The notes beneath the pieces were generated by a model. That model was not told the DNA's origin. It was given only the letters and a program-made list of their open reading frames with translations, and ran no database searches. A stretch of 60,174 bases of DNA, filler included, from Squatina squatina (lineage: Eukaryota): NCBI GenBank assembly GCA_031763465.1. It is 3 parts of 3 records of this genome, joined end to end, with 100 filler letters (N's around TTAATTAATTAA, not from the genome) between each part and the next. Parts side by side here need not be neighbours in the genome. Positions count along the whole stretch, not along the records: positions 44,064 to 60,174 come from JARFOE010000013.1; 2 more parts are not named here. One strand, given 5' to 3'. A program made the translations under genes and the position numbers. Positions 16,602-60,174 of the stretch are shown here, in pieces; position 1 is the first letter of the stretch, and each line of letters opens with the position of its first letter.

Positions 16602-17527
16602 NNNNNNNNNNNNNNNNNNNNNNNNNNNNNNNNNNNNNNNNNNNNNNNNNNNNNNNNNNNNNNNNNNNNNNNNNNNNNNNNNNNNNNNNNNNNNNNNNNN
16701 NNNNNNNNNNNNNNNNNNNNNNNNNNNNNNNNNNNNNNNNNNNNNNNNNNNNNNNNNNNNNNNNNNNNNNNNNNNNNNNNNNNNNNNNNNNNNNNNNNNN
16801 NNNNNNNNNNNNNNNNNNNNNNNNNNNNNNNNNNNNNNNNNNNNNNNNNNNNNNNNNNNNNNNNNNNNNNNNNNNNNNNNNNNNNNNNNNNNNNNNNNNN
16901 NNNNNNNNNNNNNNNNNNNNNNNNNNNNNNNNNNNNNNNNNNNNNNNNNNNNNNNNNNNNNNNNNNNNNNNNNNNNNNNNNNNNNNNNNNNNNNNNNNNN
17001 NNNNNNNNNNNNNNNNNNNNNNNNNNNNNNNNNNNNNNNNNNNNNNNNNNNNNNNNNNNNNNNNNNNNNNNNNNNNNNNNNNNNNNNNNNNNNNNNNNNN
17101 NNNNNNNNNNNNNNNNNNNNNNNNNNNNNNNNNNNNNNNNNNNNNNNNNNNNNNNNNNNNNNNNNNNNAAATTAGCATGGAACACACGATGGGTGGAAAT
17201 CAGGTGGAACTGGTTTGCACCTAACTTACTGTTCAGTTACACCCTGTCTACATCTATTTTTTATGCCAAATTATAAGCTAAAATCAATGTCTATGATTCT
17301 AAATTATTATGCTGTTCAATCTGTAATGCACTATAATTAAAGCACTTTCAAAACAAGCATATCTAGTTGTACTGCTGAACCAGATTTACTCTGTGATAAG
17401 CAAATGTTTGATAACAAATTGTAGGTATTTTAAAAATGTTATGCTTTTTCCATTATAGTTACACTTATGTGGATTATGGTGTCACAGCTGTTTCAGATAA
17501 ATGCTCATCTTAAATTGTAATTTTCAC

Positions 17528-17935
17528 CTTTTCCAACACTTTCATTACTGCACTGAGTTGTTCTCCTGTAGCTTCTGTAGTAATCTTGTTTTGCATTTTC
17601 TGAAGAATTTGATTTATTAAGTCATCATCAAGGGGTTGGTATAACTGATCAACTAAACCCCAGAAGAACTGAGAGTTAGCATCTGTGACTATTGTGATGT
17701 TTGCGATGTTGTAATCCTTATCCAGTTGAGTTCCTGCAGTTGGATTGGAGAGCATCACTTGAAGTCGCTTCGGCAATGGATTGGAGGACGCCAGCTCCGG
17801 AGTGAGAACAATGTCCAATGCAATGCTCGACTGCCCCGGTTGGAAAGTTAAAATGCCTTCCGTTTTGACAAAATCCATCCCAGCAATAGCTGGTGATATT
17901 AAGGTTTGGCCTACCAGCTCAGCTTTTCTCAACTC
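17528..17935 (-). CDS. ADGRV1: ADGRV1 exon, last Calx-beta-like repeat and start of GAIN region
   Basis: tatag|ELRKAELVGQTLISPAIAGMDFVKTEGILTFQPGQ...VMKVLEK|gtgaaa, 408 nt, open frame. Confidence 0.93.
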
Positions 17936-18083
17936 CTATAAAATACAAAATAAGGACATTAATTTGCTCTGAGCTAAGTCAATTTATTTGTGATGCAAGT
18001 ATTTATTTCATAACTATAATCATTTTCTTTTCAATAAAATCAAAGAAAAATGTAAACCCATGATAAAGGAAACCTAGAAGGCA

Positions 18084-18386
18084 ATGGCCCAGAATTTGCT
18101 TAAATAACAACAGCATCTGAATGGTGCAGAAGATTATTAATGTGAAAATTGACCAACAACTCGCAGTGAGGAAGGTATGCCCCGTGAATTGCAAATCGCC
18201 ATATTAGTTGCCCATTAAACTCGCCACAGAAAGTTAAGTCTCATAAACTATAGCGTAACTACCCATTTAACGACATAATAATTGTCGATGACTGCCAATC
18301 AACTTCACTTGCCCAGAAAGTGAACAATTAGACGTGCAGAGATCCATTCCTTCAAGTAGCGAATTATTGTTGGGAGATTTTTAAAA
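18084..18386 (+). mobile_element. Left arm of non-autonomous Harbinger-like element
   Basis: GGCCCAGAATTTGC terminus; similar to 36213-36600 and 44694-44890. Confidence 0.55.
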
Positions 18387-18486
18387 NNNNNNNNNNNNNN
18401 NNNNNNNNNNNNNNNNNNNNNNNNNNNNNNNNNNNNNNNNNNNNNNNNNNNNNNNNNNNNNNNNNNNNNNNNNNNNNNNNNNNNNN

Positions 18487-19058
18487 CCTCCACGAGGATT
18501 TGTTAGGTAGACATAAAAAAATTCTTGTCCTTCTGGTTCACTATCATCGAAAATTCTGATGGATATATTGATCTCCCTTTGCTCATCCTGGAGAGCAACA
18601 TTCAAAGCTTCATCTTCAAAATCTGCTCCTTCTTTGGCCCAGGAATAGGTGGAGTTTTGCTGGATGTTTTGGAAATGGGTTTCTTGGAAATGGGTTTCTT
18701 GTAAACCATCTGAAAACTTTTTTTCTCCAAAAGTTTTAACACTCGCACTGATGATCCCAGTAAATCTCAATGTCCTTCGAATGTGAAGGACTACTACACT
18801 TTCTGTACTATTACCACTGTCCTCTACAATGTGTATCACAGTGGGTCCAATGCTTAGAACACCATTAGTGGCATCATTGGCAATAACAGTTATAGATGAC
18901 ACACTAAAGTCTAAATTCAAGTGAGGTTTTTCTTCTGTATTATTTGGCCTAAAATCCAGAACTTCAACGCTGGACAGATTTAGGTAGAATACTTCATCCA
19001 TTTCTGGAATATTATCATTGATGATAAACAATTTAATAATAGCTTCCTGAGAAGGAGT
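18487..19058 (-). CDS. ADGRV1: ADGRV1 large exon (internal part between two gaps), Calx-beta repeats
   Basis: Open frame with FIINDNIPEMDEVFYLNL...IANDATNG...IFDDSEPEGQEFFYVYLTNPRG (Calx-beta DDxxPExxExF motifs). Confidence 0.95.
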
Positions 19059-19846
19059 NNNNNNNNNNNNNNNNNNNNNNNNNNNNNNNNNNNNNNNNNN
19101 NNNNNNNNNNNNNNNNNNNNNNNNNNNNNNNNNNNNNNNNNNNNNNNNNNNNNNNNNNCCAAGTGTGGATTTCTGGATTCAGATCAGATGTTGCCCTGGC
19201 ACAGTCACCACCAGAACAGCCAAGCAACTGAAAGAAGGGAGTAAAGTCACCCGCAGTTGTAGGACTGAGAAACCTGGAGTAACAGTAATGGCTGTGGGCT
19301 GCAGGATCTCTGGCTGCTGTACAAAAACAGTAGCCAGATGACCTCAAGCCCAAAGATTTCCATAGCACCTTTTTCAAAAAGTTAATTCCTGGTATGTGGG
19401 CATCACTGACAAGGCCAGCATTTATTGCCCATCCCTGATTACCCTCAAGAAGATGGTGGGGAGCCACCTTCTTGAACCACTGCAGTCCTTGTGTGAAGAA
19501 CTGTAATAAAAAAGTTCCACTCACCTTTTTCATCCTTCATGGCCTTGCTGCTGCTCCTCACAGATCTTCTGATTGAAAGGGGGCCTAGTGCAAGTCCCAA
19601 CACTTGCTTCTTCCTACTGGGTGCCTGCACAGCACACCAGCAGGAAAATGAGGCAGAAAGCCCCCTAAAGAGCTTCTCGCCTCGTTTCCATACTTGCCCA
19701 TGCTTGTGCCACTCCAAGTGCAGATACTTTGTGCACCCACCTCAGTAAAGCAGTTGTGTAGGTTTCTCACCACACCTCAAAGCATAGGGAGATTTGTTAA
19801 GCTGAAAGATCAAATTTAAAAAAATATTTTAAGCTGCTGTACCCAC

Positions 19847-20314
19847 CTGATTTGTGATTGGCATTGTGGCAACAGCAAAGCTCGCACCATCTCTGACCAA
19901 CACAGCTCCCAAAAATCCATCTGTTGAAATTTCTTGCCCGCTAAACATGAGCCTGTATTCCACAATCACATCTTGAAACGTCCCACCATGTCTTGTAATA
20001 TTAATCTGAAAGTAGCGACTCAAATCACGTTCAACAATCACAGTTTGCCCATCTGAGTAGACGGCAAACAAGCCGTAAGGGTCATCATTTTCAGGAACAT
20101 TAAATCTTGAATTGTCCTTTTCCTTGTTTAAATCAGCTCCTCCTTCCACAGAAGTCAGCCTAATTACGTAAACTTCATCTAACTCTGGTATGTCATCAGC
20201 TAACAGCTGAACTTTTATCTCTGCATTTTGCTGCATATCTAGGATAGTGACTGTGCCGCTGATTGAAAAAAAGTCTCCTGTCATATCAGAATCACTCTGG
20301 AGCTTCCAGTACAC
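19847..20314 (-). CDS. ADGRV1: ADGRV1 exon, Calx-beta repeats
   Basis: taag|VYWKLQ...LLADDIPELDEVYVIRLTSVEGGA...VPENDDPYGLF...PITNQ|gtgggt, 468 nt. Confidence 0.95.
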
Positions 20315-21377
20315 CTTAAATCAAGATACAAAGATAGTCAGTCATTTGAATTAAGAGCAACATTACCAATGTAGAAAACATGTGTTGCACGGAATTTGAC
20401 AACCTACATTTCTGACGCTGATTTTTTTGGGCATTTTCCCGAGCAAGTTCAAAAAGAAAATCCGATTTTGAAGTAATACCTCTGAAATATTCAAAAGTGA
20501 ATTGCATTTGTTAAATATCAAATCAGTAAATAGATCTCAGAGAGACACAGTTAGGAAAACGGAGCACATCTTCAGGCTTTGGGAACATGATCAAGTGCAC
20601 TCAATGAATTAAAATAGATTAAAATGTAAAAAATATTCAGCGCACAAATAAAGCACATTCCATCCTTTGCCATTTTAATCAAGAGGAGGGANNNNNNNNN
20701 NNNNNNNNNNNNNNNNNNNNNNNNNNNNNNNNNNNNNNNNNNNNNNNNNNNNNNNNNNNNNNNNNNNNNNNNNNNNNNNNNNNNNNNNNNNTCTTCAGCT
20801 TTTCAATGTTCTGTGCCTCATAAATGTGTTTGATTTCTCTTCTATTGACTTATGTTCACATCATTTCAGCCATTTTTTTCCCTTCTCCTTTACCTTAATG
20901 CTGTTCATCTACATTATCTTCTAGTTCTGAAACATTGAATTGTTTTTCTCTCTAAAGCTACTGACTGACCTGCTGAGTGTTTCCAGCATTTTATATATTT
21001 GTTATGAATTCAACAGTATCTGGAGCACAATCAACTGTACTTGACAAACCTATAACTCGTATATTAAGTTTTAAGGTATTTATCAGTAAGAAGCACTAGC
21101 ATCTGGAGAGATACAAATAATAATTACTGTACACAATAACAATACAGTCTCCACCACTTATGCAATGGTGAAGAATTCTCAGAGTATTTTGCATTCTTGT
21201 GACAAGGATCAGCAGTTGCGATCCTGACCATTTCCTCCCCCACTAGTTTACTACAGGGCATTGAGACCAACTGTGGCAGCTTTACTATCATACCGGCTAA
21301 GATTAGCTAATTCACCACAGACCAATAATCAAACTTCCTGTTCTGACCTATTTCAGACTTTATTCAATTTCTTGTAC

Positions 21378-44063: not shown

Positions 44064-44346
44064 AGCGGCACCCACTGGTTTCATGTAAACGAAGGAAACC
44101 TCCCCTGACTCTCTGGCAGGATCAGTGGTGGGGGTTCCTAGCCTGTGGATGAAAGGCCCATGGAAAGGTCCACGTTAGTCAGGATGAAAGGCCCATGGAT
44201 AATCGGGGCAAGCCTTTTTATTACTAATAGCACACATAATTTCAACCTTCACACATTTAAGCTTTTTGACCACAGACAATTAAAATATTTACAAATATAT
44301 CAGCTTAACTTATGCATTCTAAAAGTATGTAAAAATAAATGCTCAC

Positions 44347-44559
44347 CAGTCCATCACATTTGTCATCCCTGATTTGTATGAACTTTTGTGGATTCTGTAC
44401 ACTCTCAAACATGTAAATCTTAGGACTGACTTCATGTACCCGCAAATATGACATTTGAAATTGTTTTCCTGTTCCTAAGCAGGTTCCATCAGAAGTAATA
44501 TACAGACTCTGGTAAAGACTAGTATTCAGCAAAACGACTGCACCATGTTCAAATGCACC
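44347..44559 (-). CDS. RP1: RP1 downstream exon, beta-trefoil (FGF/fascin-like) segment
   Basis: tttaag|GAFEHGAVVLLNTSLYQSLYITSDGTCLGTGKQFQMSYLRVHEVSPKIYMFESVQNPQKFIQIRDDKCDGL|gtgagc, 213 nt; beta-trefoil-like repeats (L.I..DG...G; FESV..P..FI.I). Assignment to RP1 is by position and strand. Confidence 0.75.
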
Positions 44560-44693
44560 CTTAAATAATAAAAAGAAGAATGAATGGTAAAGGTAGAAAA
44601 CATTACTGGTATATAACATGTTCAGCCCAAAATAGTAGACATTAATAAATCTCAAGACGAAGATAAAATCCTATTATATGGAGTTGTTATATT

Positions 44694-44890
44694 GGGCCGG
44701 ATTTTACGGTAGAAATAATGGTGAGGCTAACAGCGTTCACCATTATTAAAGAGTAAATCGGATAGCAACTTCCAGCGACCACCCATGCGCAGTTAAAAGC
44801 AGAAATCAAAAATTACTGTCCAAGTAGCCCTGCTCCTCCAGTAGCTTCACTATAACAGTATCTCATTGAGAGACTCGGCATTGAAATATC
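44694..44890 (+). mobile_element. Left arm of the 36208-36995 element family
   Basis: GGGCCGGATTTTAC...AATAATGGTGAGGCTAACAGCGTTCACCATTATT...GAGACTCGGCATT is shared. Confidence 0.7.
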
Positions 44891-44892
44891 TT

Positions 44893-44996
44893 GGGTACGA
44901 TAGCATAGTGGTAAGTTACGGGACTAGTAATCCAGAGGCCTGGACTAATAATCTGGAGACGTGAATTCAAATTCCACCACGGCAGCTGTGGAAGAT
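44893..44996 (+). mobile_element. tRNA-derived SINE 5' end
   Basis: TAGCATAGTGG A-box-like and AATTCAAATTCC B-box-like motifs with GGACTAGTAATCCAGAG; inserted into the transposon arm. Confidence 0.6.
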
Positions 44997-45335
44997 NNNN
45001 NNNNNNNNNNNNNNNNNNNNNNNNNNNNNNNNNNNNNNNNNNNNNNNNNNNNNNNNNNNNNNNNNNNNNNNNNNNNNNNNNNNNNNNNNNNNNNNNGGTA
45101 CATTAATTAAAATTAGTTTACATTAGGAAATTGATGTAACTACTGGCAAGTTTTATAATTATTTTGCTAGCTCAGATTATAAATAGTACATAACTTCTTG
45201 TGCTTTGGTATTTTGATACTGTTCATTCCTAGAACTCCATACCACTCAGACTAAGGGGCAATTGATAGAATGTTAATAAAAATATCATGCTCTATTACCA
45301 ATTATATAGCAACATTGCATTCTAATCTTTCATAC

Positions 45336-45465
45336 CATTTTGATCGTTCTTCTCTGCAGCAGCATCCACAGTGCCATCTGGCATCAGACGTATGAACTTT
45401 CCTGTTGGTTTGCAGTAAAACTTCAAAATCCTCCCCTCCTTGAACTTCCACCTCTCAGCAGCCCA
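45336..45465 (-). CDS. RP1: RP1 downstream exon, N-terminal part of FGF-like beta-trefoil
   Basis: aatcag|WAAERWKFKEGRILKFYCKPTGKFIRLMPDGTVDAAAEKNDQN(G)|gtatga, 130 nt; resembles the FGF motif LYCxxGxFLRIxPDGxVDG. Absent from the ORF track. Confidence 0.75.
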
Positions 45466-45755
45466 CTGATTAAAGAGATAAAAGCACCACTAATTTATGG
45501 GCCGAGCAGGGAAGTAAAATTTAAGTCAACAAACACTGACTTTTAAAAATACAATCTGTGTTTAACTGTTTGCTGCTTCTGCAAAATCTAATGGGCTTTC
45601 AACATGTTTACGTGAAATTAATTCATGAAAGGGAAAAAGGGTTTCTTACAATTTCNNNNNNNNNNNNNNNNNNNNNNNNNNNNNNNNNNNNNNNNNNNNN
45701 NNNNNNNNNNNNNNNNNNNNNNNNNNNNNNNNNNNNNNNNNNNNNNNNNNNNNNN

Positions 45756-46045
45756 GTGGCCACAGCACCACGCTGCCCTGGTGGCCCAGTGGAGGCAATC
45801 AGAGACCCTGCCGAATGTGTAAGGGGAGGGGCGTTGAAACGCATCAGCGTTAGGTGGAGAAGCAGCATGGCACTGTCGATCCCGCCCAGGTAACGCCCCG
45901 GATACCACCCCAATAGGAAGTGGAGCGCGCCACATTGCGCTCCATTTCTTGTAAGGGACAGTAACCCCAATTTGCTTCCAGGGCGGGACTTCTACGCCAG
46001 GCGCGGAATGTCTGGCCCTGGAGAGGTTACCGCCCCCAACCCGGA
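45756..46045 (-). mobile_element. GC-rich Harbinger-type MITE arm
   Basis: GGAAGTGGAGCGCG...GGACAGTAACCCCAA..TGCT...GGGCGGGACTT is the reverse complement of 32360-32435. Confidence 0.65.
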
Positions 46046-46097
46046 CGATAGCCAATTTAGAGTCCTGTGTGTATATTTTAAAGTTCAAATTCCAAAC

Positions 46098-46249
46098 CTG
46101 GCCTTTCCGAAACTTCAATGGATTATTTGATCTAATAAGCTGCCTGGAGCCTGTGTCACCTCTTCTGCCATATATGATAATGAAGACATTAGCTTCTGTG
46201 CCACCATTCCAAAGATCTCCAGTTACAACAAGGACCTCATACTGAGTGA
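46098..46249 (-). CDS. RP1: RP1 downstream exon, PLAT/LH2 domain N-half
   Basis: tactttcag|TC ACT CAG TAT...GGC CAG|gtttgg, 152 nt: TQYEVLVVTGDLWNGGTEANVFIIIYGRRGDTGSRQLIRSNNPLKFRKGQ, the canonical PLAT pattern Y.V.V.TGD...AGT.ANV.I.IYG..GDTG...F..GQ. Confidence 0.85.
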
Positions 46250-46675
46250 CTGAAAGTAAAAGCTTATATTAATGTCTTGCACATCAATTTTATTTCCATA
46301 ACTTATTTACTGAATTAACATAAACTCTAACATTAGCACAGAGACAAATTACAAATAATTTATCAATCATGCTTCTGAGCTTGGGATGAACTAAAACAAC
46401 AGTAAATTCTATTTATATGCACTGGAAGACCAAGGCATTTTTCAGAGAAATGAGGAACAGATGCAAAGCCATGGGAGAGAGAGGTTAGGAGAAGTGACTG
46501 AAAGGCTATGTCAAAACATGAGTTAAAGAAAGACAGAGAAGCAAAGAAGCAGAAGGATTTAGGAAGGGGATTCCANNNNNNNNNNNNNNNNNNNNNNNNN
46601 NNNNNNNNNNNNNNNNNNNNNNNNNNNNNNNNNNNNNNNNNNNNNNNNNNNNNNNNNNNNNNNNNNNNNNNNNNN

Positions 46676-49600
46676 TCCTTATCTTTAGCAATATCTTCTG
46701 GCCTCACATCTTCAATGTGTTGTAAAGTTGTAAACTCCTCTACAAGATCACAGCCTTCTGTACAGTTAGCTCTCTCAACAATTTCTTTCTCAGCCCATTC
46801 CTTGTTCATAACTCTTGTTTCTTCAACTGTGCCTTCATTTTGAAGCAAGGACTCAGTTGTTATTTGATCTTCTAAAATGTCAGCAAAAATTGAATTGTCT
46901 TCAGAACTGAGTAGTTCAGGTTCTTTGTCACCCATTTCTTGTGCTTTACCTGCTTCTTCAGTTTTGCCTTCTTTATTGGAATGGATGTTAGCATTATATT
47001 TTACTTCTTTAGTTGCCTCTGCTTCATCCCCTTGGTCCAGTTGTTTAATTACATTTTGTATATCAAAACATTTCTCATTTTCAACAACATTAATTAGTTG
47101 TGGAGCATCAAATGAAGCAGTCTGTTCATCACCTGAAGTTCTAGTCTGTACAGGACATTCAGTTTTAGGATCATTTTCATTAACATAACTAGATTTTCCT
47201 TTATGATCATTTTTCCACGTCTTTACTAAATGAGAGGCGCACTTCTGAAGAGCTGAAATACTTTGCTTTAAATTATCAGTTTCTTGAACCTCGATAAGAT
47301 GTCTTACAGATTGCAAAAATGTTAAAATCTCAGAACATCTACAATTATGCATCAATACATTCTCACTGTCAGGTGAAGCTGGAACATTAACAGTTAGGTT
47401 CATAATTGCTAACCAAGCAAGGAGGACCTTTGAAGATGTGCTCAAAGTGGTGGCAAGATGTTCTGACATATCTGGTATTTCATAAGACTTCTCCAGACAT
47501 GGCAGGTGTTTGTGATGAGAATTAGTCTTGATCATATCAACTGTTGCCTGCAGCTTGCACAACACCGGTCTTAGGTCCTGTTCACCACTTGCGTCCGTCN
47601 NNNNNNNNNNNNNNNNNNNNNNNNNNNNNNNNNNNNNNNNNNNNNNNNNNNNNNNNNNNNNNNNNNNNNNNNNNNNNNNNNNNNNNNNNNNNNNNNNNNN
47701 NNNNNNNNNNNNNNNNNNNNNNNNNNNNNNNNNNNNNNNNNNNNNNNNNNNNNNNNNNNNNNNNNNNNNNNNNNNNNNNNNNNNNNNNNNNNNNNNNNNN
47801 NNNNNNNNNNNNNNNNNNNNNNNNNNNNNNNNNNNNNNNNNNNNNNNNNNNNNNNNNNNNNNNNNNNNNNNNNNNNNNNNNNNNNNNNNNNNNNNNNNNN
47901 NNNNNNNNNNNNNNNNNNNNNNNNNNNNNNNNNNNNNNNNNNNNNNNNNNNNNNNNNNNNNNNNNNNNNNNNNNNNNNNNNNNNNNNNNNNNNNNNNNNN
48001 NNNNNNNNNNNNNNNNNNNNNNNNNNNNNNNNNNNNNNNNNNNNNNNNNNNNNNNNNNNNNNNNNNNNNNNNNNNNNNNNNNNNNNNNNNNNNNNNNNNN
48101 NNNNNNNNNNNNNNNNNNNNNNNNNNNNNNNNNNNNNNNNNNNNNNNNNNNNNNNNNNNNNNNNNNNNNNNNNNNNNNNNNNNNNNNNNNNNNNNNNNNN
48201 NNNNNNNNNNNNNNNNNNNNNNNNNNNNNNNNNNNNNNNNNNNNNNNNNNNNNNNNNNNNNNNNNNNNNNNNNNNNNNNNNNNNNNNNNNNNNNNNNNNN
48301 NNNNNNNNNNNNNNNNNNNNNNNNNNNNNNNNNNNNNNNNNNNNNNNNNNNNNNNNNNNNNNNNNNNNNNNNNNNNNNNNNNNNNNNNNNNNNNNNNNNN
48401 NNNNNNNNNNNNNNNNNNNNNNNNNNNNNNNNNNNNNNNNNNNNNNNNNNNNNNNNNNNNNNNNNNNNNNNNNNNNNNNNNNNNNNNNNNNNNNNNNNNN
48501 NNNNNNNNNNNNNNNNNNNNNNNACAGAGCTGTTGCTGATGGCAATAGCGGCTTGGTCCCCCATTCTTTGTAATCTACTATCCAGTGACTCTGTACTACT
48601 CGGTCCTTTTCCTGGTGGACAAGCTATTGCTAATTGAGAAAGGCTAGATTCAGTTGCTTCTTTCGGGAGTATTAAGTCAGTTGAGCTATGAGATATAGAA
48701 CTATCACCACCATTTCCAATATGGAATGTCACTTTGCTTTCATTAGACATCTCAACGGTATTAAATTCAGTACTTTGACATTTGTCAGTGTCAACCATTT
48801 CTATTGATCCTTGACCACGACTGGGTGTAGTGCAATTATCACTCAAAACTTCATTTTTTTCAAGCTGGCCTAGTATTTTAACTGGTTTTGAATGACTGCC
48901 ATATTCTGGGTGAAGTTTTGTGTTCTGACTTGTATGTTTTCTGTATTTTTGCTCATTCATTCTTGAAGACAAAGCTAAGTCATTGCAAACAGGGCTTATT
49001 GCTTCAGCTGTTTCTTCTGTATTTGTGCATGATGAATCATTTGAATCTGTATTAACTGGCATTTCAACCTTATTAGTAGTTTTAATGCAGTCCTGATTCC
49101 TCACAGTAGAGCTTTGTGAACACTTTGAAACACTGTTTAAATTTGCCAACAATAGAGACATTCTGGCTTCACAAAACTCAGAGCTATAAGTACAATTGGT
49201 CTTTACATCTGTTTTTTGTTTTCCTTCTGTGGATGTGAGTGAACACACCATTCTAGATGACAAGCTACTGGTTTCATTATGAATTGATACAGAAGATCTA
49301 GAATACCTGAATGAAGCGCTCATTGGTCTCCTTACATCTCTTTTTCCTCGTTTTGAAATGGAGTATGTTGGATCTGCTGAAGAAGGTCTCAAATTTATTT
49401 TTGCAAAATTAATATCTGTGTCAACACATCCAATTTTTTCCCAATACTGAGAAAAGATATTTGTTGCATTTGTACTTTCATTGATGGAGTTGATCATTTT
49501 TGGTACAACTAATTGATCTTCAAAGGATGATCCTGAGTACTTTGAGGAGGAGTCTTTCCCAACAAAAGAGCTGCTTTTATCTAGGATTGTTTTTTCTTCT

Positions 49601-50471
49601 CCGTGACTATTTACATTAATCTTCTCACATGTTTGGAGCTCCTCAGAAGCTGCACCACTACTTACTTCACAAGATTCTTTTTCATTTGATATTGAAAAGA
49701 GTTCATTATAGTGCTCCATTATGCTCTCTTCAAGTCCTGTCTCCTGTAGATTTGAAAATTGAACTATATTTGCACTAGTTTCTGTGTCAGACTTTGCAGT
49801 TATGCTTTCCAGAGACACCTGGTCCTGCCTCATCTTTCCATGACTCGGACTTCCCTTGCAACTATACAACGGTTTGAATTCTATCCCCGATTCAAGAAGA
49901 TTTTCATCAGTGTTTGAAAAACTATTTTGCCAGATGTCACAATGTCCTTCTTTATCCTGTTCGATATGCATTGTGCATTCTTGTGGTGTAAAATGATCAT
50001 CAAATTCTTGCTCATGACGCAAGTCCTCAAAATGCATCATTTTTGAATCATGATGGGAGTGCGCATTAATCAGATCTGCCGATTCAACATTAGATTCCAG
50101 TTTTGAATTGCAAGCATTACATTTTTTGTTACATATACCAGAACGGCTAATTGTAGTAGTCCATTGTATTGTCTCTTCCTCTTTTATTCGAAGGTGTACT
50201 CTCATTTCTACTGTCAGACTGCCATCCTCATTCATATAAATGGACTTCTCAATATCATCATCTGATGGCATCACAGGCTTATCTTCTCTTGAGTAAACGT
50301 AATTCTTACAAGAGCCTGTTTCATTTTTGGGTATAAAGGAACTGCTTCCTAAGAAGTTTTTACTGTCATTCACATATAATTTATCAGAAGATGTGGAGTA
50401 AACCTGAGATTTTGAGCTAGAAGGAGATATTGAGTTAATCAACCATTGTCTTCTCCCTGATTTTATGTTGT
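46676..50471 (-). CDS. RP1: RP1 (oxygen-regulated protein 1) giant exon 4, interrupted by a 924-N gap; 3' end lost in the next gap
   Basis: Acceptor gtacag|AC AAC (phase 1). It contains SSSKSQVYSTSSDK and DDIEKSIYMNEDGSLTVEMRVHLRIKEEETIQWTTTISRSG (RP1-family motif after the DCX domains) and LEKS...SSKVLLAWLAIMNL, within a long Ser/Glu-rich open frame. RP1L1 is less likely because of the SSSxSQxYSxSS motif and the downstream PLAT exon. Confidence 0.88.
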
Positions 50472-50661
50472 CTGTACACAAAGATGAGGCAAAGATGATG
50501 AAGGTGATTCCCAGTGCCAAATTACATCAGAGATGAAGAACAGAAGATAAAAAAAGAGAAAAGGTAGAAATAATAAGAAATGTCAGAAAATAAATTATGA
50601 AAATAAATTATAACATTTATAACGCTAATTTACTGTTTTGATGAAGAACAAACATCAAGCA

Positions 50662-51200
50662 TCAGGACAGACAGAAGCAAATGCAATAGGACAGCGAGAA
50701 GCACAGGCAACAGGACAGGGAGAAGCACAGGCAACAGGGCAGGTAGCAGGACAGGACAACAGGACGGGGAGAAGCACAGGCTACAGCACAGGGAAAAGCC
50801 CAGGCAGCAGCACAGGGAGAAGCACAGGAAGGATGACAAGGAGAAGCACAGGAAGAAGATCAGGGATAAACACAGGCAGCAGGACAGGGAGGAGCAAAGA
50901 CAGCAGGACAGGGAGAAGCACATGAAGGAAGCCAGGGAGTAGCGCAGGAAGGAAGACAGGGAGAAGCACAGGAAGGAGGATAGGGAGAAACACAGGCAGT
51001 AGGACATGGAGTAACACAGGCAACAGGACATGGAGTAACACAGGCAGCAAGACAGGGAGAAATACAGGCAGCACGGCAGGGAAAAGCTCAGGCAGCGAGA
51101 CAAGGAGAAGCACAGGCAACAGGACAGGGAGAAGCACAGGCAACAGGACAGGGAGGAGGACAGGCACGGGCACAGGGAGAAGTACAAGGAAGGAGGACCG
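50662..51200. repeat. Purine-rich minisatellite, ~24-bp unit (CAGGACAGGGAGAAGCACAGGCAG) built from 12-bp subunits
   Basis: Direct reading; it generates the spurious LSCCLCFS / VLLP ORFs. Confidence 0.9.
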
Positions 51201-51300
51201 NNNNNNNNNNNNNNNNNNNNNNNNNNNNNNNNNNNNNNNNNNNNNNNNNNNNNNNNNNNNNNNNNNNNNNNNNNNNNNNNNNNNNNNNNNNNNNNNNNNN

Positions 51301-51802
51301 CTAAACTGCTCCCAGTCCTCAGGTTTGCTGCTTTTTCTGGCCAATTTATATGTCTCCTCCTTGGATTTAATACTATCCCTAATTTCCCTTGTTAGCCACA
51401 GTTGAGCCACCCTTCCTGTTTTATTTTTATGCCAAACAGGAATGAATAATTGTTGTAGTTCATCCATGCGATCCTTAAATGTTTGCCATTGCCGATCCAC
51501 CGTCAACCCCTTAAGTAACATTCCCCAATCCATCCTAGCCAACTCGCGCCTCATACCATCATAGTTTCCTTTATTTTGATTCAGGACCCTAGTCTCAGAG
51601 TCAACTACATCACTCTCCATCTTGATGAAGAATTCTGTCATATTATGGTCGCTCTTCGCCAAGGGGCCTCGCACAACAAGATTGCTAATTAATCCTTTCT
51701 CATTACACAATACCCAGTCTAAAATGGCCTGTTCTCTCGTTGGTTCCTCGACTTATTGGTCCAGAAAACCATCCCATATACACTCTAGGAATTCCTCCTC
51801 CA
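51301..51802 (-). mobile_element. CR1 LINE ORF2 fragment (endonuclease C-terminus and linker), little decayed
   Basis: EEEFLECIWDGFLDQ*VEEPTREQAILDWVLCNEKGLISNLVVRGPLAKSDHNM...WLTREIRDSIKSKEETYKLARKSSKPEDWEQF. Confidence 0.92.
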
Positions 51803-52799
51803 CATTTAGTCACCTCAGAAGCCACAATTCTGGAATTCTGGAGTGGAAACAAGTCAACCTCGATCCCGAGAGACTGCCTAAGAAGAAGAAGATGCATTGG
51901 ATAAATGTAGCAATAGCAAGCAGTAGCATGAAAGTTATTTTAAAATTCTCATAAACTTAGCAGGTAAAACATTTTAATTAGAAATGCAGCTGCTCTGTAC
52001 ACTCCTGAATGTGCATGTTAAATATTTGCCATTTCATGTTTAACATTGTATTATTTAGTTATATTTCTTTATCCATTGTAATGTTTCAGTGGAGCCATTC
52101 CCAGTTGGGCGTGCATAGTAGCTGTTTATATTGTATTGTTATAACTCACGCACTATTCGTTCCTGCAAACTCCAAAACAACAGCGGCAACCTTTATTTTT
52201 AGTCACCAGGAGTAAATAAAATGAAAATCTACTTCGAATTAATTATACACTCTGCTGGTTTGAAAGAAACAAACTTTAACACCTCTGGATTAAGCAGCCA
52301 AAACACAAACACTTCGGTCACTGAACAGAACTGTAAATCACAGCAGTAAACTAATTATGAAAAAACACAGACAAAGATGTGTTACTTAATCTCATGCAGA
52401 TTAACACTCTAACCATAATATTTTTTCAGTTTGATGGAGTCACCAATACTTTACTGTCACATTCTTATCTTAGGTGTTCATGGGCAAAAATGTGTATTCC
52501 TGCGATTTGCTGGTGTCTTGATAGCTGTCAGTTTCGATAGTATCTTGATAGACAGGCATACAAATGAATTGCTTGTCACCATCAGAGCTGAGATAACTAC
52601 CCTGTTTGCTTATTTGAGTGCAAACCTGTCCCATGTTACAGATCTATTTTAGTTAAAATATTATGCAGGAGACTTGTAATGAGATAGATTTCCTCAGCTA
52701 AATCAGATCGTCTTGTAATATGGGCTGGTTATACTGTACATTTTGTTTAAACGTGTTGGTTTTGGCTTGGTGCCAACACAAACTGTGTAGTATAAAATC

Positions 52800-53931
52800 A
52801 ACAGGGAAGTTGCCAGAATTAGTGAGTGCAGGCACTCTGGCTCTCCCGTTCATGATGGTACTGATCTCCGAATACTTGCTTAACACTCTGTTCCCTCATG
52901 TCTATGCTGACATTCCTCCTAGAGAGGAGGTCTATGAACCCCTGCCATCTATTCTCCATAAAGACCATGTGCCCCTGTGAGTGGCGCATTAGCTGCTCCA
53001 TGCAGGTGGCCATCCTATATGGAAGAGCCTACAGTCACCATCGTCTTTGACAGGGTGGAAGGAGGGAAAGAAGAGAAAATTGAGTGAGAGTGATGGAGTG
53101 AATGTGAGGAATGGATGGGCTACATCTTTAGAGGGGGACTATGACGGATTGGATTGGCAATGCCAAATGGCCTCCTTGTGTGTGTTAGTTGGTATGATTG
53201 CATTAGGATGAGGGTGAGTATGAGGGGTGGCTTGTAAGATGGGGATGTGATAATGTAGATAGCGAGAGAGGGATGGGTAGATGTGCAAGGTATGTTGGTA
53301 TGAGAATGATGTGCATGAGCAGGCTTGGGAAGGCAAAGTGATGGACATGTGGTGACAGGTACCTCAGGATGAAGGTGTGTGTGGCATTGTACTCACCTTT
53401 GCTGATCTCATTAGATCATTGAATCTCTTACTGCACTGTTACCCATGTCCTCCTGACGACTTCCCTGCTGTTGACCTCCTCAGCAATAACAAGCCATGCC
53501 CTTTTGGTCTCTTGGGGAGGTCTCATCTGCCCATCAGCAAGGAAGAGGACCTCACTGCGTGCTCTGACTCCCTCCACCAGAATATGGAGTGAGTCATCCA
53601 AAAGGTAGTGTGCAGCCCTCTGTCTTTGTGAAGTCATTTTTATAACTCTCAGCAAGAACCCTTTCCTCTACAATACTCCCTCCACATTCCAACATGAACC
53701 TTCAAAGGCAATGTGTTCAAGGCTGCCTAAAATATCTCCACTGGAAATGAGTCATCGATAATGTCATCAGACCCACACTATTTAATAAGGCTGGCAAACG
53801 CGCAAACTAGTTTAATAGGAGCTAATTAACTGATAGTTGCAGTGGAGAATGCGCTGTTCACATCTTCGGGACCCTGACCCGCTAAGTGGCCTGCATCCAC
53901 GCAACCCGACTTCACGGTAAAAATTCCGGCC
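52800..53931 (-). mobile_element. PIF/Harbinger element relic with Myb/SANT-like gene
   Basis: RAAHYLLDDSLHILVEGVRARSEVLFLADGQMRPPQETKRAWLVIAEEVNSREVVRRTW...RFNDLMRSAK|gtgagt; terminus AAATTCCGGCC at ~53931. The left boundary is approximate. Confidence 0.75.
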
Positions 53932-54015
53932 TACATCTTTGAATGCTTTTATGCATCAGAATCTGTTACATTACAAAGGCAAAAGCTTCCACAGTTACAT
54001 TTTCTTAAAACATGC

Positions 54016-54696
54016 TGAGGTAAAGTTTCCGCTTTGGCCGTAATTGTCAATCTGGGCACAAATTGTGTTCGAAGTTGTGCTAGTTTTCCAGAAGTTGTGG
54101 TTTAAGTTTGCATAATCACCAAAGTAAAAAAGTGAATTTTTATTTCCCCTTGCATTATAAATATTCCTTGATATATTTAAGAGTGGTAATTTGGTCCAAT
54201 TTTATTAATAGAGCTGAAAATGGGTTTATCAAAAAATATAAGCATTTTTAATCAGAGTGTCTAGTCTGCCACCTGTAAGTAACAATTTTAAATAACTGAC
54301 AATGACTGTAAAACACTATACGGAACCATTTATTAGTTTCATTAGTGTACAACTGGCAGTTTCTTAGTAAATTAAATATTTTTTAATATTTAAAAATAAA
54401 ACCTAAAAGATGCCTACTAGTGTGTTTGCACCTAAAAACAAGACTCTCCTCAAAGGCCCGTATACGGGTGCAATCGGTGGAAGCTCGCCATGGTGATTAA
54501 TTTATCAAGGGGTGTGGCCAGTTTTGTGGGCAGGGTCGGGTTCCAGCACGATGCTTTTCAAACTAGTGCAAAGGATCGCAGAAACATAATTTGCACTGAC
54601 CCGAACTCGCACTTGAAATTCATCAAACCTTCACGCTGGTTTGGTAAATTTCGGGTGAATTGCACTAGTGCGCAACTGAGCAGAAACTTTACCCTG
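54016..54696. mobile_element. ~680-bp non-autonomous DNA transposon
   Basis: Inverted termini GGTAAAGTTTC (54019-54029) / GAAACTTTACC (54683-54693). Confidence 0.55.
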
Positions 54697-56747
54697 CTTA
54701 ATGAGTGTAAATGATGGTTTAATGACTCCAAACTTTAAGTTTCATAACAGAGAGGGACTTAAAGAAGGAAGGTGACATATGTTCTGCGCATTACTTTGGC
54801 TCCGATTATTTACTCTGATTTCTGTTTGTTTTATGTGGGTTTATATGTTCCGGGTATGCTAATACGATTTTCAGGAAATTTCAGTCTTCCGATTTTCCAG
54901 TTGGCAAGATCGGTGTAAAAATCGGNNNNNNNNNNNNNNNNNNNNNNNNNNNNNNNNNNNNNNNNNNNNNNNNNNNNNNNNNNNNNNNNNNNNNNNNNNN
55001 NNNNNNNNNNNNNNNNNNNNNNNNNAAAAGAAGGCACACAGCTTCATTAAAATATTTAAATGACCAACCTGCCTCCTACATGCAGATTGGTCACCTGTTC
55101 CTTATTAAAACCAGAGGTGAACGGGTTCAAGGTGGGTTGAGTTCCTGGTTCAGATTTTTTGAATTTTCACCTGTGGCCCGACCCCAACTCACCCATTTTT
55201 GGGAGACTGTGGCTGGAATAGAGCAGTTGAAAGAGAGGTAGGGAACATTGGAAACTGATTCAACCCAAGGCACTTACATGCACCTTTCAGAGGAAAGGTA
55301 GTTCCGGTGGCAGCCTGGCACATCTTACCTATCTGCTCTTGGTCAGGGAATACAATGTGGAAAACCAAAAGGGGGGAGAAAAAAAGGCAAAGAAGACTCT
55401 TTGAAAAATGAACCTTACCCACATAATTGGAGATGCAATGATGTAATTATAACTTATGTGTACAAATTGCAGTGATTTTTTTTTCTGCATTGACAATAGA
55501 GCTACAGTGCTACTGGTCTGTGATCATTTCTCCAATATACTCTACGGAAACTGCCAGAAAGGCTTTGTTTTGCAACTGTGATTATTACAAGACCGAAAAT
55601 ATCTGTGCAACAAGCAGCCTTACGCCAGCTGGTTCCTTCACATTCAAGTCATTCAGCAAGTTTTGTGGAAGCATTGTAAGCTAATTAGGTAAGGAAGTAA
55701 ACCAACAACTGTAAAAACACACCAGCAGAATGAATTGTGGACATTAAATTAGAAAATTAAATAAACTGTTTTACTTATGAAACTTGCTGAAATTTAAAGA
55801 CAAATGGCACAGTGCAACCTCAGCATAAAAGGTATCAGCTACGTTAAGTCCCATTGATGACAGCTCCATCATAACACCCATTTATAACATTATTCCTCCA
55901 CCCCAGCTTTCCGGTTCAGCATTATATTTGCTGCATTCCTGCAGCGTTATGTCACTGATTTCTTGTGCATACTGTGATGTTGCTCTACTCTTATGTATTC
56001 CTGTGTTCTATTTTGGTGTCATGGTATTAGAGCATATCATTATCAAGTCACTGCTCTATGCAAAATGTTATGATGCCATTATAGGACTGAGTTCACAACC
56101 CAGCTCTCTCAGCAAGGAGAGGCATTCTCATGGACTGTGGATCGAAAAACCACGGGCTCCAGGTCCATTATTTTCCAACTTGTGTTCCTTGCCAGCACCA
56201 CTCATAGCTGGAAAAGCTGGATCATGGAATCGCCCATTATATTACAAGGCAGAGCCACAATGTCATTGCTATTATTATATGTACCAACTTTGGCCTTGAA
56301 AACTCATAGAGCCATTGATGTTGGTGTTATGGTATTGAGGCAGGGCTTCCATTTGCTGTTTCTCTCCAGCTCTGACCTGTTGTAAATTGTTGGGATCGTT
56401 TAATTTAAATATCCACTGGCGTTTCAATAGTGTAACTCTTGAATAACATAGGGTTACTACACTGGGTTTGCTTGAGAATTAATAATGCAGCCTTTAAAAA
56501 GCTAGGACTGACTGAAAGAGTGCAGCAGTAAGCTGTGGGAGCAGCAGATAAGTAGGAGAGTGTTTGGATCACTGCCTGACAGAGGAACCCAAAAAGGGGA
56601 GCAGGGCATTACAATGAGGTAGAAAAGAAGGCCACACAATTTCAATGNNNNNNNNNNNNNNNNNNNNNNNNNNNNNNNNNNNNNNNNNNNNNNNNNNNNN
56701 NNNNNNNNNNNNNNNNNNNNNNNNNNNNNNNNNNNNNNNNNNNNNNN

Positions 56748-57140
56748 GCACTTCACAGCCAATTAAGTACTTGATGTAGTCAACGTCGGAAATGCAGCAG
56801 CCAATTTTCACAAATCCAAGTCCCACAAATAGCAATGAAATGAATGCCCAGATCATCTGTTTTTGGTGTTGGTTGAGGAATGAATGTTGGCCAGGACACC
56901 AGGAGAACCCTGCTCTTCTTCAAATAGTGGCATGTGATTTTTTAATGTCCACCTGCAAGGACAGATGTGGACTCAGTTTAATGTCTCATCCAAAGGATGG
57001 CACCTCAGACAGTGCAGCACTCCTTCAGTGCAGCACTTGAGTGTCAGCCTAGATCACGTGCTTAAGCCTTACGAGAGGAACTTGAACCCACAGCCTTCTG
57101 ACTCCGAGGGGAGTGCTACCTTTGAGCCAAGGCTGACTCA
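56748..57140 (-). mobile_element. SacSINE1/DeuSINE (older copy)
   Basis: Reverse complement of the Deu core (GTCTCATCCAAAGGATGGCACCTCAGACAGTGCAGCACTCC) and tRNA head. Confidence 0.8.
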
Positions 57141-57667
57141 TTCAGAATACTGGAGAGACGGAAGGGGATTAAGATGAACTAAAAGGAGTTTAGTTAGTGT
57201 TATAGGGTATTATAGTGAAGCTCAAAAGATTATTAAAGAATGTGGACTGCTTGCAGTTGCATATGAGTGATAGATACCGCATTGCAGCTGCCATTTTATT
57301 TGAATTTTCTTGGGTGTATTAAATGTGTATCAGCTGCTGTCATCAGTTGGAGTGAATCTAATTGGCAGTTTTGGGGAGCAACAGTTTTCTCCTAAAATGC
57401 ATCAGCATGAACTAACTTCATCATTTACTTTAGGGATTTGTCCTCCATCCAGATGTAATTATAGAAATTAACAGAGATGAGCAGAGGATGGTAGTCAGAA
57501 AGTGTGAAAGGGATTTGAGCCCATAATTATGGAGCCTTTAGTTATCAAAACACAACAGAACTAATGCAAGCTTGATACAGATTTGTGGTAATTTCTCAAC
57601 AATTACTGTTAACTTTTCTTAACCCAAAATGCAGGGATGATCTGTTGTATGTGTGTTTAGGATTATC

Positions 57668-57736
57668 AGACAAGGATTGGGAGCAGTTTAGAATTCAACA
57701 AAGGAGGACAAAGAGATTGATTAAGAGGGGAAAAAT
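57668..57736 (+). mobile_element. CR1 ORF2 fragment
   Basis: DWEQFRIQQRRTKRLIKRGK, same family as 51301-51802. Confidence 0.8.
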
Positions 57737-57836
57737 NNNNNNNNNNNNNNNNNNNNNNNNNNNNNNNNNNNNNNNNNNNNNNNNNNNNNNNNNNNNNNNN
57801 NNNNNNNNNNNNNNNNNNNNNNNNNNNNNNNNNNNN

Positions 57837-58080
57837 CCCCCAACTCGGCTCCCTGGTGGCCTAGCGCCGTGCCCCGAGGCTCTGTTGCCTCTGCCGGCAA
57901 CCCTCCTCTTTATCCCGCACTCCCCAGCAATTCATGGGGTCAGCGCCAGGTCAGCGCTGACCTGGAAATGAGGCAAAGACCCCAATTCCGGGGCAGAAGA
58001 CATCGATGCGGGGCCGGAAAAAAAATACCCAGCCCGGACTAATGCAGCAGCTGATTTCGGCACTGTTGAATTGGGGCCCC
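57837..58080. mobile_element. GC-rich MITE arm
   Basis: CpG-rich segment ending in GAATTGGGGCCCC. Confidence 0.55.
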
Positions 58081-60174
58081 TTGTTATGAAGTTTTTGATT
58101 ACAACCTTTTTATCTATTTGCAATGGTGTTATTCCCAAGCTGCATCATCTCATGGAGCAATCTCATATTCAACAATTTTAGATAGGTTTGTAATCTTTAG
58201 TCTTAGATTAACTGAATTGCTATCTAGTTAAATTTTAGCAAACCATTTGATAAAACTGAGACTGTATGAAAGCGTTTCCCACACTGATGTGCAAAGATAA
58301 ATAAGGAAGGATGGAATCTCTGCTGTCTGAATTGATCCACTCTGTTGTGCTCTTCACTCACCAGGGTGCCAGAACAATATTTTCTCAAACATGTTCATTT
58401 GTGTGGTCTTTCCAAGAGGAAAGCATTGGCCCTTAGTGTCTACTGTACATGTTCCTAGTTTCCCAGGAATCTCTTTTGCATCATGTGGCTAACAGGAAGC
58501 AACCTCTCAGCGAGTGATTACTTTACCCTGAGGATATGATCCTCGTGGACTACTTTTCGAAAACCAGTCAGTTTTAGTCAGCAACATTTGAATCACCCTG
58601 ATAATATATAAAGTCAAAACAGAAACCAATGTTCTTAATATTACTAGGATTTCTGTTTGTTAAAGCCGGTCTTTGCATTGAGGGTTTATAGTCATAGGCC
58701 TTGAGTTTCTACAGGTCATCCTGATCTCCCGCCAGAGTTACAGCAGAAGATCAGGGCAAATACTGCAGAAATATAGGCTTAGACTTTCCATCTCTATCAT
58801 TATTTCAAGGTGGTACTATTATTTCTGAAGTCATTTGCAATTTTTTGTATTAATATAGAAAAATACTGAACTTAATACTTAGTTTTGTCATATATTTTGT
58901 ATCAAACAGAATAAATCAAAGACTTGTAACAGCTCAACGCTTCTGGGGGCCTAAGGCAGCCCCTGAATCACCATCACATTTGGCTACATCTTTGGCACTT
59001 GACTGAATCTCTGCCCTCAGAAAAATTTCCTCAGGTTGGAAGGTACACTGTTGCTTACTGTACTTTACCATATGACTTAACTTAAATACAAGAACATTAA
59101 ACATTCAAAATGACTATTCACTCATTAAACCCATGAAAATAAACATTTCATTACTAACTTTAAAAAATAAGTAGGTACTTTCCTTTTTTGATATAATACA
59201 TTTTTCTCATTACAGTCACAAAGCGTGAAATCCTGAGCAGAAAATGCAATTCAAATGACATGTGAAAGCATTAGATTCATTATTCCACACGGCAGAATAA
59301 AGTTTGAAGTTTTTATTCCTTTTCTCTGGTAGGTGACGAGTGGGCCAGAGCTCCTGAGGAAAACCCGGAGGTCTCTTCCGATCATACATATTGTGGGCTG
59401 TATAGGGTCAGGAGGTCAGATATGTTTCGCAATCGAGGACTGATGGAAAAGACATTACAGTTTTTGTTGGGCAGGGGGAAGGGTGAATTGGCTGAAATGT
59501 AGACCTGTTCTATCAAAACACTGNNNNNNNNNNNNNNNNNNNNNNNNNNNNNNNNNNNNNNNNNNNNNNNNNNNNNNNNNNNNNNNNNNNNNNNNNNNNN
59601 NNNNNNNNNNNNNNNNNNNNNNNAGTGGACTTTAAAGGAGTCCTGTAGTTTACATAACCTTGTGTCCTTTAACTTACTTGTGTTAGATGTAGATTTCAAA
59701 GTTACAACAATAAATCTTCAAATCTGGCCAGTTTTACTTTAAACTCCCTTTGCTGCTGTTCCAGCCTGTCTCTGTTGCCACCAAGCAGCTTGTGTCTGAT
59801 GCCTTGATGATTGACTGTGTGGACATAGGCCAAAACAAAACTCACAATAGATCTGAAAACATCTTGCCAAGGACTGCGAGCAAGAACACTTAATGCACCA
59901 TAATACTGAATACCATAATGCGCAATGTATATGAAGAATAAATGCAGAGTTCCTGAAAGTAAAAGTAGCAGAGTATTTTCCTTTAAATTTATAAAAGTCT
60001 CACCATCAACATTTCTTTTAATATTCAGTTAAAAGAAATTAAGACTAATTTTAATGTCATTTCCATTTATCTGTGTTGATTTTGGGACTATCCACTCCAT
60101 CACAAAGATTGCGTACTTCCATCTCCATAGTATCATCCATCTCTGCCCTTAACTCAGTTCATATGCTGCAAAAA

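Follow-up and report, generated by a model that had tools for sequence, protein, structure and literature searches.

Among the closest described counterparts of the locus reported here is a human RP1 transcript, NM_001375654.1, which the available text of PMC11919084 (2024) describes as lacking exon 4 and as having a biological function that is not known. The accessible portion of PMC12167180 places p.Ser295 in exon 4 of the 30 exons of this transcript, and a clinical figure legend of 2026 lists the RP1 domains as DCX, PLAT (residues 264-381 and 392-510), and FGF (residues 544-578) (PMC13657128, legend text). The human protein entry A0A1B0GTV9, with Logan among the sources listed, contains two DCX domains, four PLAT domains, and FGF. 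The DNA analysed in this work is a stretch of 60,174 nucleotides from the shark Squatina squatina (assembly GCA_031763465.1; three parts joined by 100-N filler, hereafter the window), of which positions 44064-60174 (record JARFOE010000013.1) are colinear with C13:9241086-9257196. On the minus strand of this part lie the giant exon 4 of RP1 and, downstream of it, three exons that encode half of a PLAT domain and the starts of two FGF-like beta-trefoils. By sequence comparison the three are assigned to an RP1 isoform that skips exon 4 and carries the second PLAT domain (PLAT2) and tandem FGF-like trefoils. We propose, with a probability of roughly 0.8, that the three exons code for PLAT2 and the tandem trefoils of this long isoform, likely spliced past exon 4 and predicted to be an axonemal microtubule-to-membrane linker.

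An earlier note on this DNA had reported the three exons, and all were found on the minus strand with AG/GT splice sites and open frames (Table 1). The PLAT exon matches Pfam PLAT (PF01477) over half of the domain at E 4e-5 (24.8 bits, cut-off 23), as that note had predicted. Of the two exons it had called beta-trefoil segments, 45336-45465 matches Pfam FGF below the cut-off (E 0.003, 18 bits, cut-off 24) and 44347-44559 has no Pfam match, so the proposed domain search held above threshold for the PLAT peptide only. Their trefoil nature agrees with an FGF-type fold in the ortholog model described below, but the two exons are the starts of two different trefoils. In the order PLAT, 45336, and 44347, the exons are 92, 86, and 91% identical to the Pristiophorus (sawshark) model P0001 and 62, 62, and 51% identical to human A0A1B0GTV9, values at which chance resemblance is no explanation. 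The comparison with elasmobranch and human long RP1 that the note had suggested was thus positive (69-92% among chondrichthyans, 51-62% for human). The PLAT exon aligns with residues 422-471 of P0002, 402-451 of P0001 (92%), and 392-441 of human P0135 (62%), exon 45336-45465 with P0001 541-583 (86%), and exon 44347-44559 with P0001 679-748 (91%); the PLAT2 exon and the two FGF-like exons stand in the same order as in the ortholog protein A0A1B0GTV9. When exon 44347-44559 was searched among longer proteins, 4 of the 12 candidates matched, all from cartilaginous fishes, three of them with DCX, PLAT, and FGF and one with PLAT and FGF only.

The giant exon is identified by similarity as RP1 exon 4. 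Its best match is Scyliorhinus RP1 (P0167; E 1e-82), the top named matches are called "oxygen-regulated protein 1", and all named matches are from jawed vertebrates. The 5' part is 67% identical to Scyliorhinus RP1 over residues 266-913; unplaced contig C633562 encodes the equivalent of P0167 915-1234 in a single open frame and fills the 924-N gap, and the end of the exon, with a TAATAA stop, is present on contig C530254. At gap 46576-46675, 725 amino acids of P0167 are unaccounted for.

Several exons of the long isoform are missing from the window and were located on unplaced contigs: C259772 and C569712 carry PLAT1 exons, C297847 carries an exon of PLAT2 (matching P0001 477-505), and C197577 carries the second exon of trefoil 1 (matching P0001 584-618). 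We infer that C259772, which carries the first PLAT1 exon (PLAT1a), belongs between exon 4 and PLAT2. The phases agree at three junctions: C569712 ends and the PLAT exon of the window starts in phase 1, exon 45336-45465 ends and C197577 starts in phase 1, and exon 44347-44559 ends and the exon at C13:9238322 starts in phase 0. The earlier note had pointed out that the giant exon and the PLAT exon both begin in phase 1; this is true, but the PLAT exon it named encodes the start of PLAT2, and its phase match with exon 4 is therefore not the relevant one. The relevant exon is PLAT1a, whose acceptor (ccatag/GA) is in phase 1, as is that of exon 4; the note's phase argument thus arrived at a correct conclusion by way of the wrong exon. 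Further PLAT exons continue to C13:9211176, past those covered by P0001 and P0002, which suggests a longer array, like that of a 15-PLAT frog model. The C-terminus of P0001 is repeat-derived and also matches the non-orthologous intervals C13:9337482-9337779 and 9177695-9177805; this public Pristiophorus model is partly chimeric.

Table 1. Features of the window (positions along the whole stretch; / marks an exon boundary)
Feature	Position	Strand	Description
PLAT2a (first half of second PLAT domain)	46098..46249	-	ttcag/TC..CAG/gtttgg, 152 nt, phase 1 to 0
Trefoil 1, first exon (FGF-like)	45336..45465	-	atcag/TGG..ATG/gtatga, 130 nt, phase 0 to 1
Trefoil 2, first exon (FGF-like)	44347..44559	-	ttaag/GGT..CTG/gtgagc, 213 nt, phase 0 to 0
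RP1 giant exon, 5' part	48524..50471	-	acceptor gtacag/AC at 50471, phase 1
RP1 giant exon, middle part	46676..47599	-	65% to P0167 1227-1526; cut by gap 46576-46675
Scaffold gap, 924 N	47600..48523		inside exon 4; missing coding part on unplaced contig C633562
Scaffold gap, 100 N	46576..46675		must conceal ~2.2 kb of exon 4 with stop codon, introns, and PLAT1 exons
Scaffold gap, 100 N	45656..45755		expected to conceal remainder of PLAT2 and linker helix
Scaffold gap, 100 N	44997..45096		expected to conceal remainder of trefoil 1

The same domain combination is annotated widely. The DCX-to-trefoil region of P0002 matched 203 proteins at E<=1e-20, and at least 52 of them contain DCX, PLAT, and FGF (hand count over the 120 of 203 matches listed). 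Gene models with this combination come from Pristiophorus, Chiloscyllium (one cluster of 12 isoforms), Callorhinchus, skate, and gar, and from amphibians, reptiles, birds, and mammals. In Callorhinchus the short (XP_007889226) and long (A0A4W3K3J8) models are identical over residues 1-210, share 54 more residues ending in KKDIGR, and then split into exon 4 or PLAT1. The earlier proposal that one locus makes either DCX plus a tail or DCX plus PLAT plus trefoil is accordingly annotated in Callorhinchus and human, with many PLAT domains and two trefoils instead of the single units envisaged. The note overstated the novelty: the architecture is already known in RefSeq and UniProt for human and several cartilaginous fishes, and the shark locus is one further ortholog. 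Among ray-finned fishes, the 120 of 203 matches listed include DCX-PLAT-FGF forms of gar, reedfish, and sturgeon and none of a teleost; exon-4 forms of teleosts are many. A loss of the DCX-PLAT-FGF form in teleosts is possible.

The fold of the trefoil region was examined in an AlphaFold2 model of the orthologous 279-residue region (46 sequences), which has a mean predicted local distance difference test score of 90.7 and a predicted template modelling score of 0.86 and consists of a helix followed by two all-beta domains. Foldseek matches to the model are tandem beta-trefoil proteins. In VIA-align, FGF4 ranked first for the second trefoil (Z 20.1, root-mean-square deviation (rmsd) 1.6, 122 residues aligned), and the first trefoil matched FGF18 (Z 19.2, rmsd 2.0, 123 aligned) and FGF8b (Z 18.3). 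Lectin trefoils trail the FGFs by only about 1-3 Z units, so FGF is the closest match by a margin that is not wide. An ortholog profile matches FGF2 (E about 2e-5), and Pfam FGF is above its cut-off in full-length orthologs; the ESM Atlas gave fascin/FGF clusters only, under 0.9, which is treated as a lead. FGF-like genes have reportedly been tied to RP1 before. Two reviews, as far as their available text goes, derive FGFs from an FGF-like domain, citing Bertrand, Iwema & Escriva 2014. Sequences related to the RP1 trefoils were also seen in a protist, Anaeramoeba (P0284, five FGF-like stretches), and in the sea urchin Lytechinus (P0265, a double trefoil with PLAT and ten FN3 domains).

Two DCX domains, a PLAT array, and an FGF-like region occur together in amphioxus and the snail Physella, with 18 PLATs each, and in the annelid Ridgeia, with 11; a lamprey protein has the same architecture with one DCX match in a partial model, and a Taenia protein combines DCX and PLAT and weakly matches both trefoil exons. 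A hidden Markov model of the exon-4 motif found none among 280 other proteins of a selected set (not whole genomes), invertebrate ones included. Since the long form extends from annelid to human and the named exon-4 matches are all from jawed vertebrates, the long form is likely the older of the two. Judged from this distribution, DCX-PLAT-FGF-like-PLATn is probably the gene that the bilaterian ancestor had, and exon 4 was probably inserted later, in vertebrates. The earlier dating, before the shark/bony-fish split, was too young.

The mechanism that we propose is as follows. After the DCX exons, the transcript would very probably either end in exon 4 or skip to the phase-1 PLAT1 exon; this either/or splicing is annotated in other species and is carried over to S. 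squatina. The exon-4 route would yield the photoreceptor RP1, i.e., DCX with a long low-complexity tail, and the route that skips exon 4 would run through the PLAT array. Going by the domain families, and at somewhat less than even odds, DCX would bind the tubulin of the outer doublets and the PLAT array either anionic lipid or proteins of the membrane; the trefoils would bind proteins inside the cell and would not be secreted ligands. The long isoform would then be a doublet-to-membrane linker, probably in motile cilia, which the exon-4 tail would replace in photoreceptors. In a published set of cross-links from bovine airway cilia (Table S1), accession Q8MJ05 is presumably bovine RP1 in its exon-4 form; in the part of the table available, all but one of its 12 linked positions (11) coincide with a K or T in human RP1 when an offset of 0 or 1 is allowed, which confirms it as RP1. 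Among the accessions cross-linked to it are some that we take to be beta-tubulins. In multiciliated cells of the airway, RP1 is reported to be a microtubule-associated protein, and in the portion of Table S1 at hand all 39 xiSearch rows of Q8MJ05 lie at residue <=252, inside the DCX exons (PMC13082021). On the Scout sheet of the same table, 80 of 82 rows of A0AAA9T1P2 (the same protein) lie in the DCX exons (from 120 of 253 mentions). In mammalian short RP1, about 90% of the lysines are in exon 4. Naive lysine sampling would give the cross-link pattern a probability of about 1e-12 to 1e-15, a figure that does not serve as a p-value, since sampling is unequal between folded and disordered regions; disordered regions may be under-sampled, and the search database is not specified in the available text of PMC13082021. 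These counts are a hint that airway RP1 is mostly made without exon 4. The cross-link partner G3MX78 was considered as a possible split PLAT part of RP1 and led only to the second RP1 accession. Put together, it is a tentative view, held at a little under one chance in two, that the PLAT/FGF-like form is the original bilaterian RP1 and tethers outer doublets to the ciliary membrane in motile cilia (those of the airway and possibly also of sperm and ependyma), that exon 4 is a vertebrate photoreceptor add-on in the DCX-PLAT1 intron, and that airway RP1 has been assigned to the wrong isoform.

A number of observations weigh against the proposed mechanism. A Pfam DCX scan, a DCX-region protein query, and a local tblastn search over 200 kb (a third of it N) gave paralogs only and no RP1 DCX exon in this assembly; the best DCX match (45%) lies on C4, at an RP1L1-like locus that has a giant exon as well. 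We therefore infer the DCX-to-PLAT link for S. squatina from the orthologs. Gecko P0170, one of 92 exon-4 matches, holds exon 4 and the PLAT/FGF-like part together, contrary to a strict either/or. In the available part of Table S1 (PMC13082021), no PLAT peptides are given, two low-scoring Scout rows lie beyond the DCX exons (855/856 and 1882/1893), and the Scout count covers 120 of the 253 mentions of A0AAA9T1P2. Stop alleles of the long isoform are common in East Asian panels (p.Ser295Ter 2.9%, p.Trp1327Ter 1.95%; PMC12167180, Table 3 as accessible), which argues against an essential role in humans and suggests that the long isoform is dispensable there. Lastly, an older NCBI model of Callorhinchus, XP_007889227, splits off the PLAT/FGF-like part as a gene without DCX.

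That model, together with some bird, lizard, and Saccoglossus models that have no DCX match, would fit a second gene, lacking DCX and driven by a promoter of its own downstream of RP1 exon 4, the joined models being annotation fusions. We consider this improbable: models from annelid to human are joined at one and the same point, PLAT1a starts in phase 1 as exon 4 does, and human RefSeq NM_001375654.1 is described as an RP1 transcript without exon 4 and, in the accessible text of PMC12167180, has residue 295 in exon 4 of 30. An internal promoter could exist alongside the joined form. More serious, though still less probable than the linker, is the view that the long isoform is made and its PLAT/FGF-like part works as a scaffold for protein interactions, or is in some lineages a decaying relic, and does not tether the membrane. 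FGF12, FGF13, and fascin, which are among the fold matches of the trefoils, are intracellular trefoils that bind proteins and are not known to bind lipids, some PLAT domains are chiefly protein-binding, and the human stop alleles point the same way. However, the PLAT and trefoil exons are far more conserved between shark and human (51-62%) than exon 4 between shark and mammals (about 25-30%), so that a relic status fails across vertebrates, and this strong conservation supports a real function; PLAT arrays that reach 11-18 repeats, as in LOXHD1, are present in frog, amphioxus, snail, and annelid and also count against this view. A literature search found no functional study of the long isoform, subscription journals being mostly outside its coverage.

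It is scarcely credible that the exons come from LOXHD1 or another PLAT gene mis-scaffolded beside RP1, the possibility that the earlier note had named as fatal to its proposal. Each exon does sit alone on a contig piece flanked by 100-N gaps, and orthologs are named "LOXHD1-like" in several databases. Human LOXHD1, however, shows 15 PLATs but neither a DCX nor an FGF match, neither trefoil exon matches it, the PLAT exon shares 50% identity with it vs 62% with human RP1-long, the exon order on C13 follows the order of the ortholog protein, and a separate multi-PLAT locus at C1:21.98-22.04 Mb is probably LOXHD1 itself. LOXHD1 identity was rejected because two trefoil exons follow PLAT2 and the locus lies between SoxF and XK-related genes. 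On C13 the genes follow each other on one strand: a SoxF-family gene at 9.267 Mb, 20 kb upstream, then exon 4, the PLAT exons to 9.211 Mb, and directly after the last of these an XK-related gene starting at 9.209 Mb. This synteny agrees with the order SOX17-RP1-XKR4, which we take to be the mammalian one, the exact paralog names SOX17 and XKR4 being likewise assumed.

The locus is poorly assembled, with 65,714 N (about one third) in the 200,000 bases around it. The 100-N runs are scaffold gaps, and the PLAT exon and both trefoil exons occupy one separate contig piece each, so that the spacing between them is an assembly effect and the distances are not real. Three RNA runs of the same species covered only repeat fragments at 44.7-45.0 kb and no exon, and are uninformative on expression. 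Open frame 59705-60028 has no Pfam match and no match to RP1 orthologs and is not counted as an exon. In the intron upstream of exon 4 there is a Myb/SANT-like fragment (53431-53667, minus strand; Pfam E 8.5e-6), probably from a Harbinger-type transposon; a 150-amino-acid open frame at 51303-51752 (minus strand) without Pfam match presumably resembles a fragment of the second open reading frame of a long interspersed nuclear element (LINE ORF2), and a degenerate, pyrimidine-rich tandem repeat (50660-51200) stands just upstream of the exon-4 acceptor. In the first stretch of the window, an unrelated part of the genome, exons at 17513-20320 (minus strand) are presumably of ADGRV1/VLGR1; 17513-17935 shows Calx-beta similarity (E 2e-4) and the two other exons have no match.

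Were the long form the ancestral one of motile cilia, RP1 would have a second role outside the retina, and the locus would offer a candidate doublet-to-membrane linker that can be tested by re-searching existing cilia proteomics. In the accessible text of PMC12167180, long-isoform stops are called likely pathogenic for retinal disease despite frequencies of up to about 3%. PLAT/FGF coordinates of the long isoform appear beside exon-4 variants in the figure legend of PMC13657128. To judge from these parts of the two papers, clinical reports may mix the two RP1 isoforms.

Compared with known systems, the locus is closest to its chondrichthyan orthologs, all with DCX, PLAT, and FGF: Chiloscyllium LOC122549101 (XP_043544289 etc.), Pristiophorus UPI00398E6D89, Callorhinchus A0A4W3K3J8, and Leucoraja XP_055489425. 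These are 69-92% identical over the three exons and differ by species-level divergence only; most are named "LOXHD1-like", a label that hides their RP1 identity. Human isoform 2 (NM_001375654.1 / NP_001362583.1 / A0A1B0GTV9) is like the shark gene in passing from the DCX exons over exon 4 to PLAT1, and in the order of two DCX, two PLAT, two FGF-like domains, and more PLATs; human RP1-long models differ in having 4-6 PLATs and common stop alleles. RP1L1 is a paralog with a DCX exon and a giant exon (C4:15.58 Mb; C4:15579699-15588347), at which no PLAT or FGF-like match was found in the 125 kb examined (46% N); its neighbours presumably resemble an RGM-family gene and methylpurine glycosylase, not SOX7. 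LOXHD1 shares with RP1-long the long tandem PLAT array (15 PLAT stretches in human) and differs in lacking DCX and FGF-like domains, in its lower identity, and in its probably separate locus on C1. FGF ligands share the FGF-type beta-trefoil fold, but they are small, stand-alone single trefoils, whereas RP1 carries two in tandem at residues ~550-830 of a DCX protein of more than 1000 amino acids.

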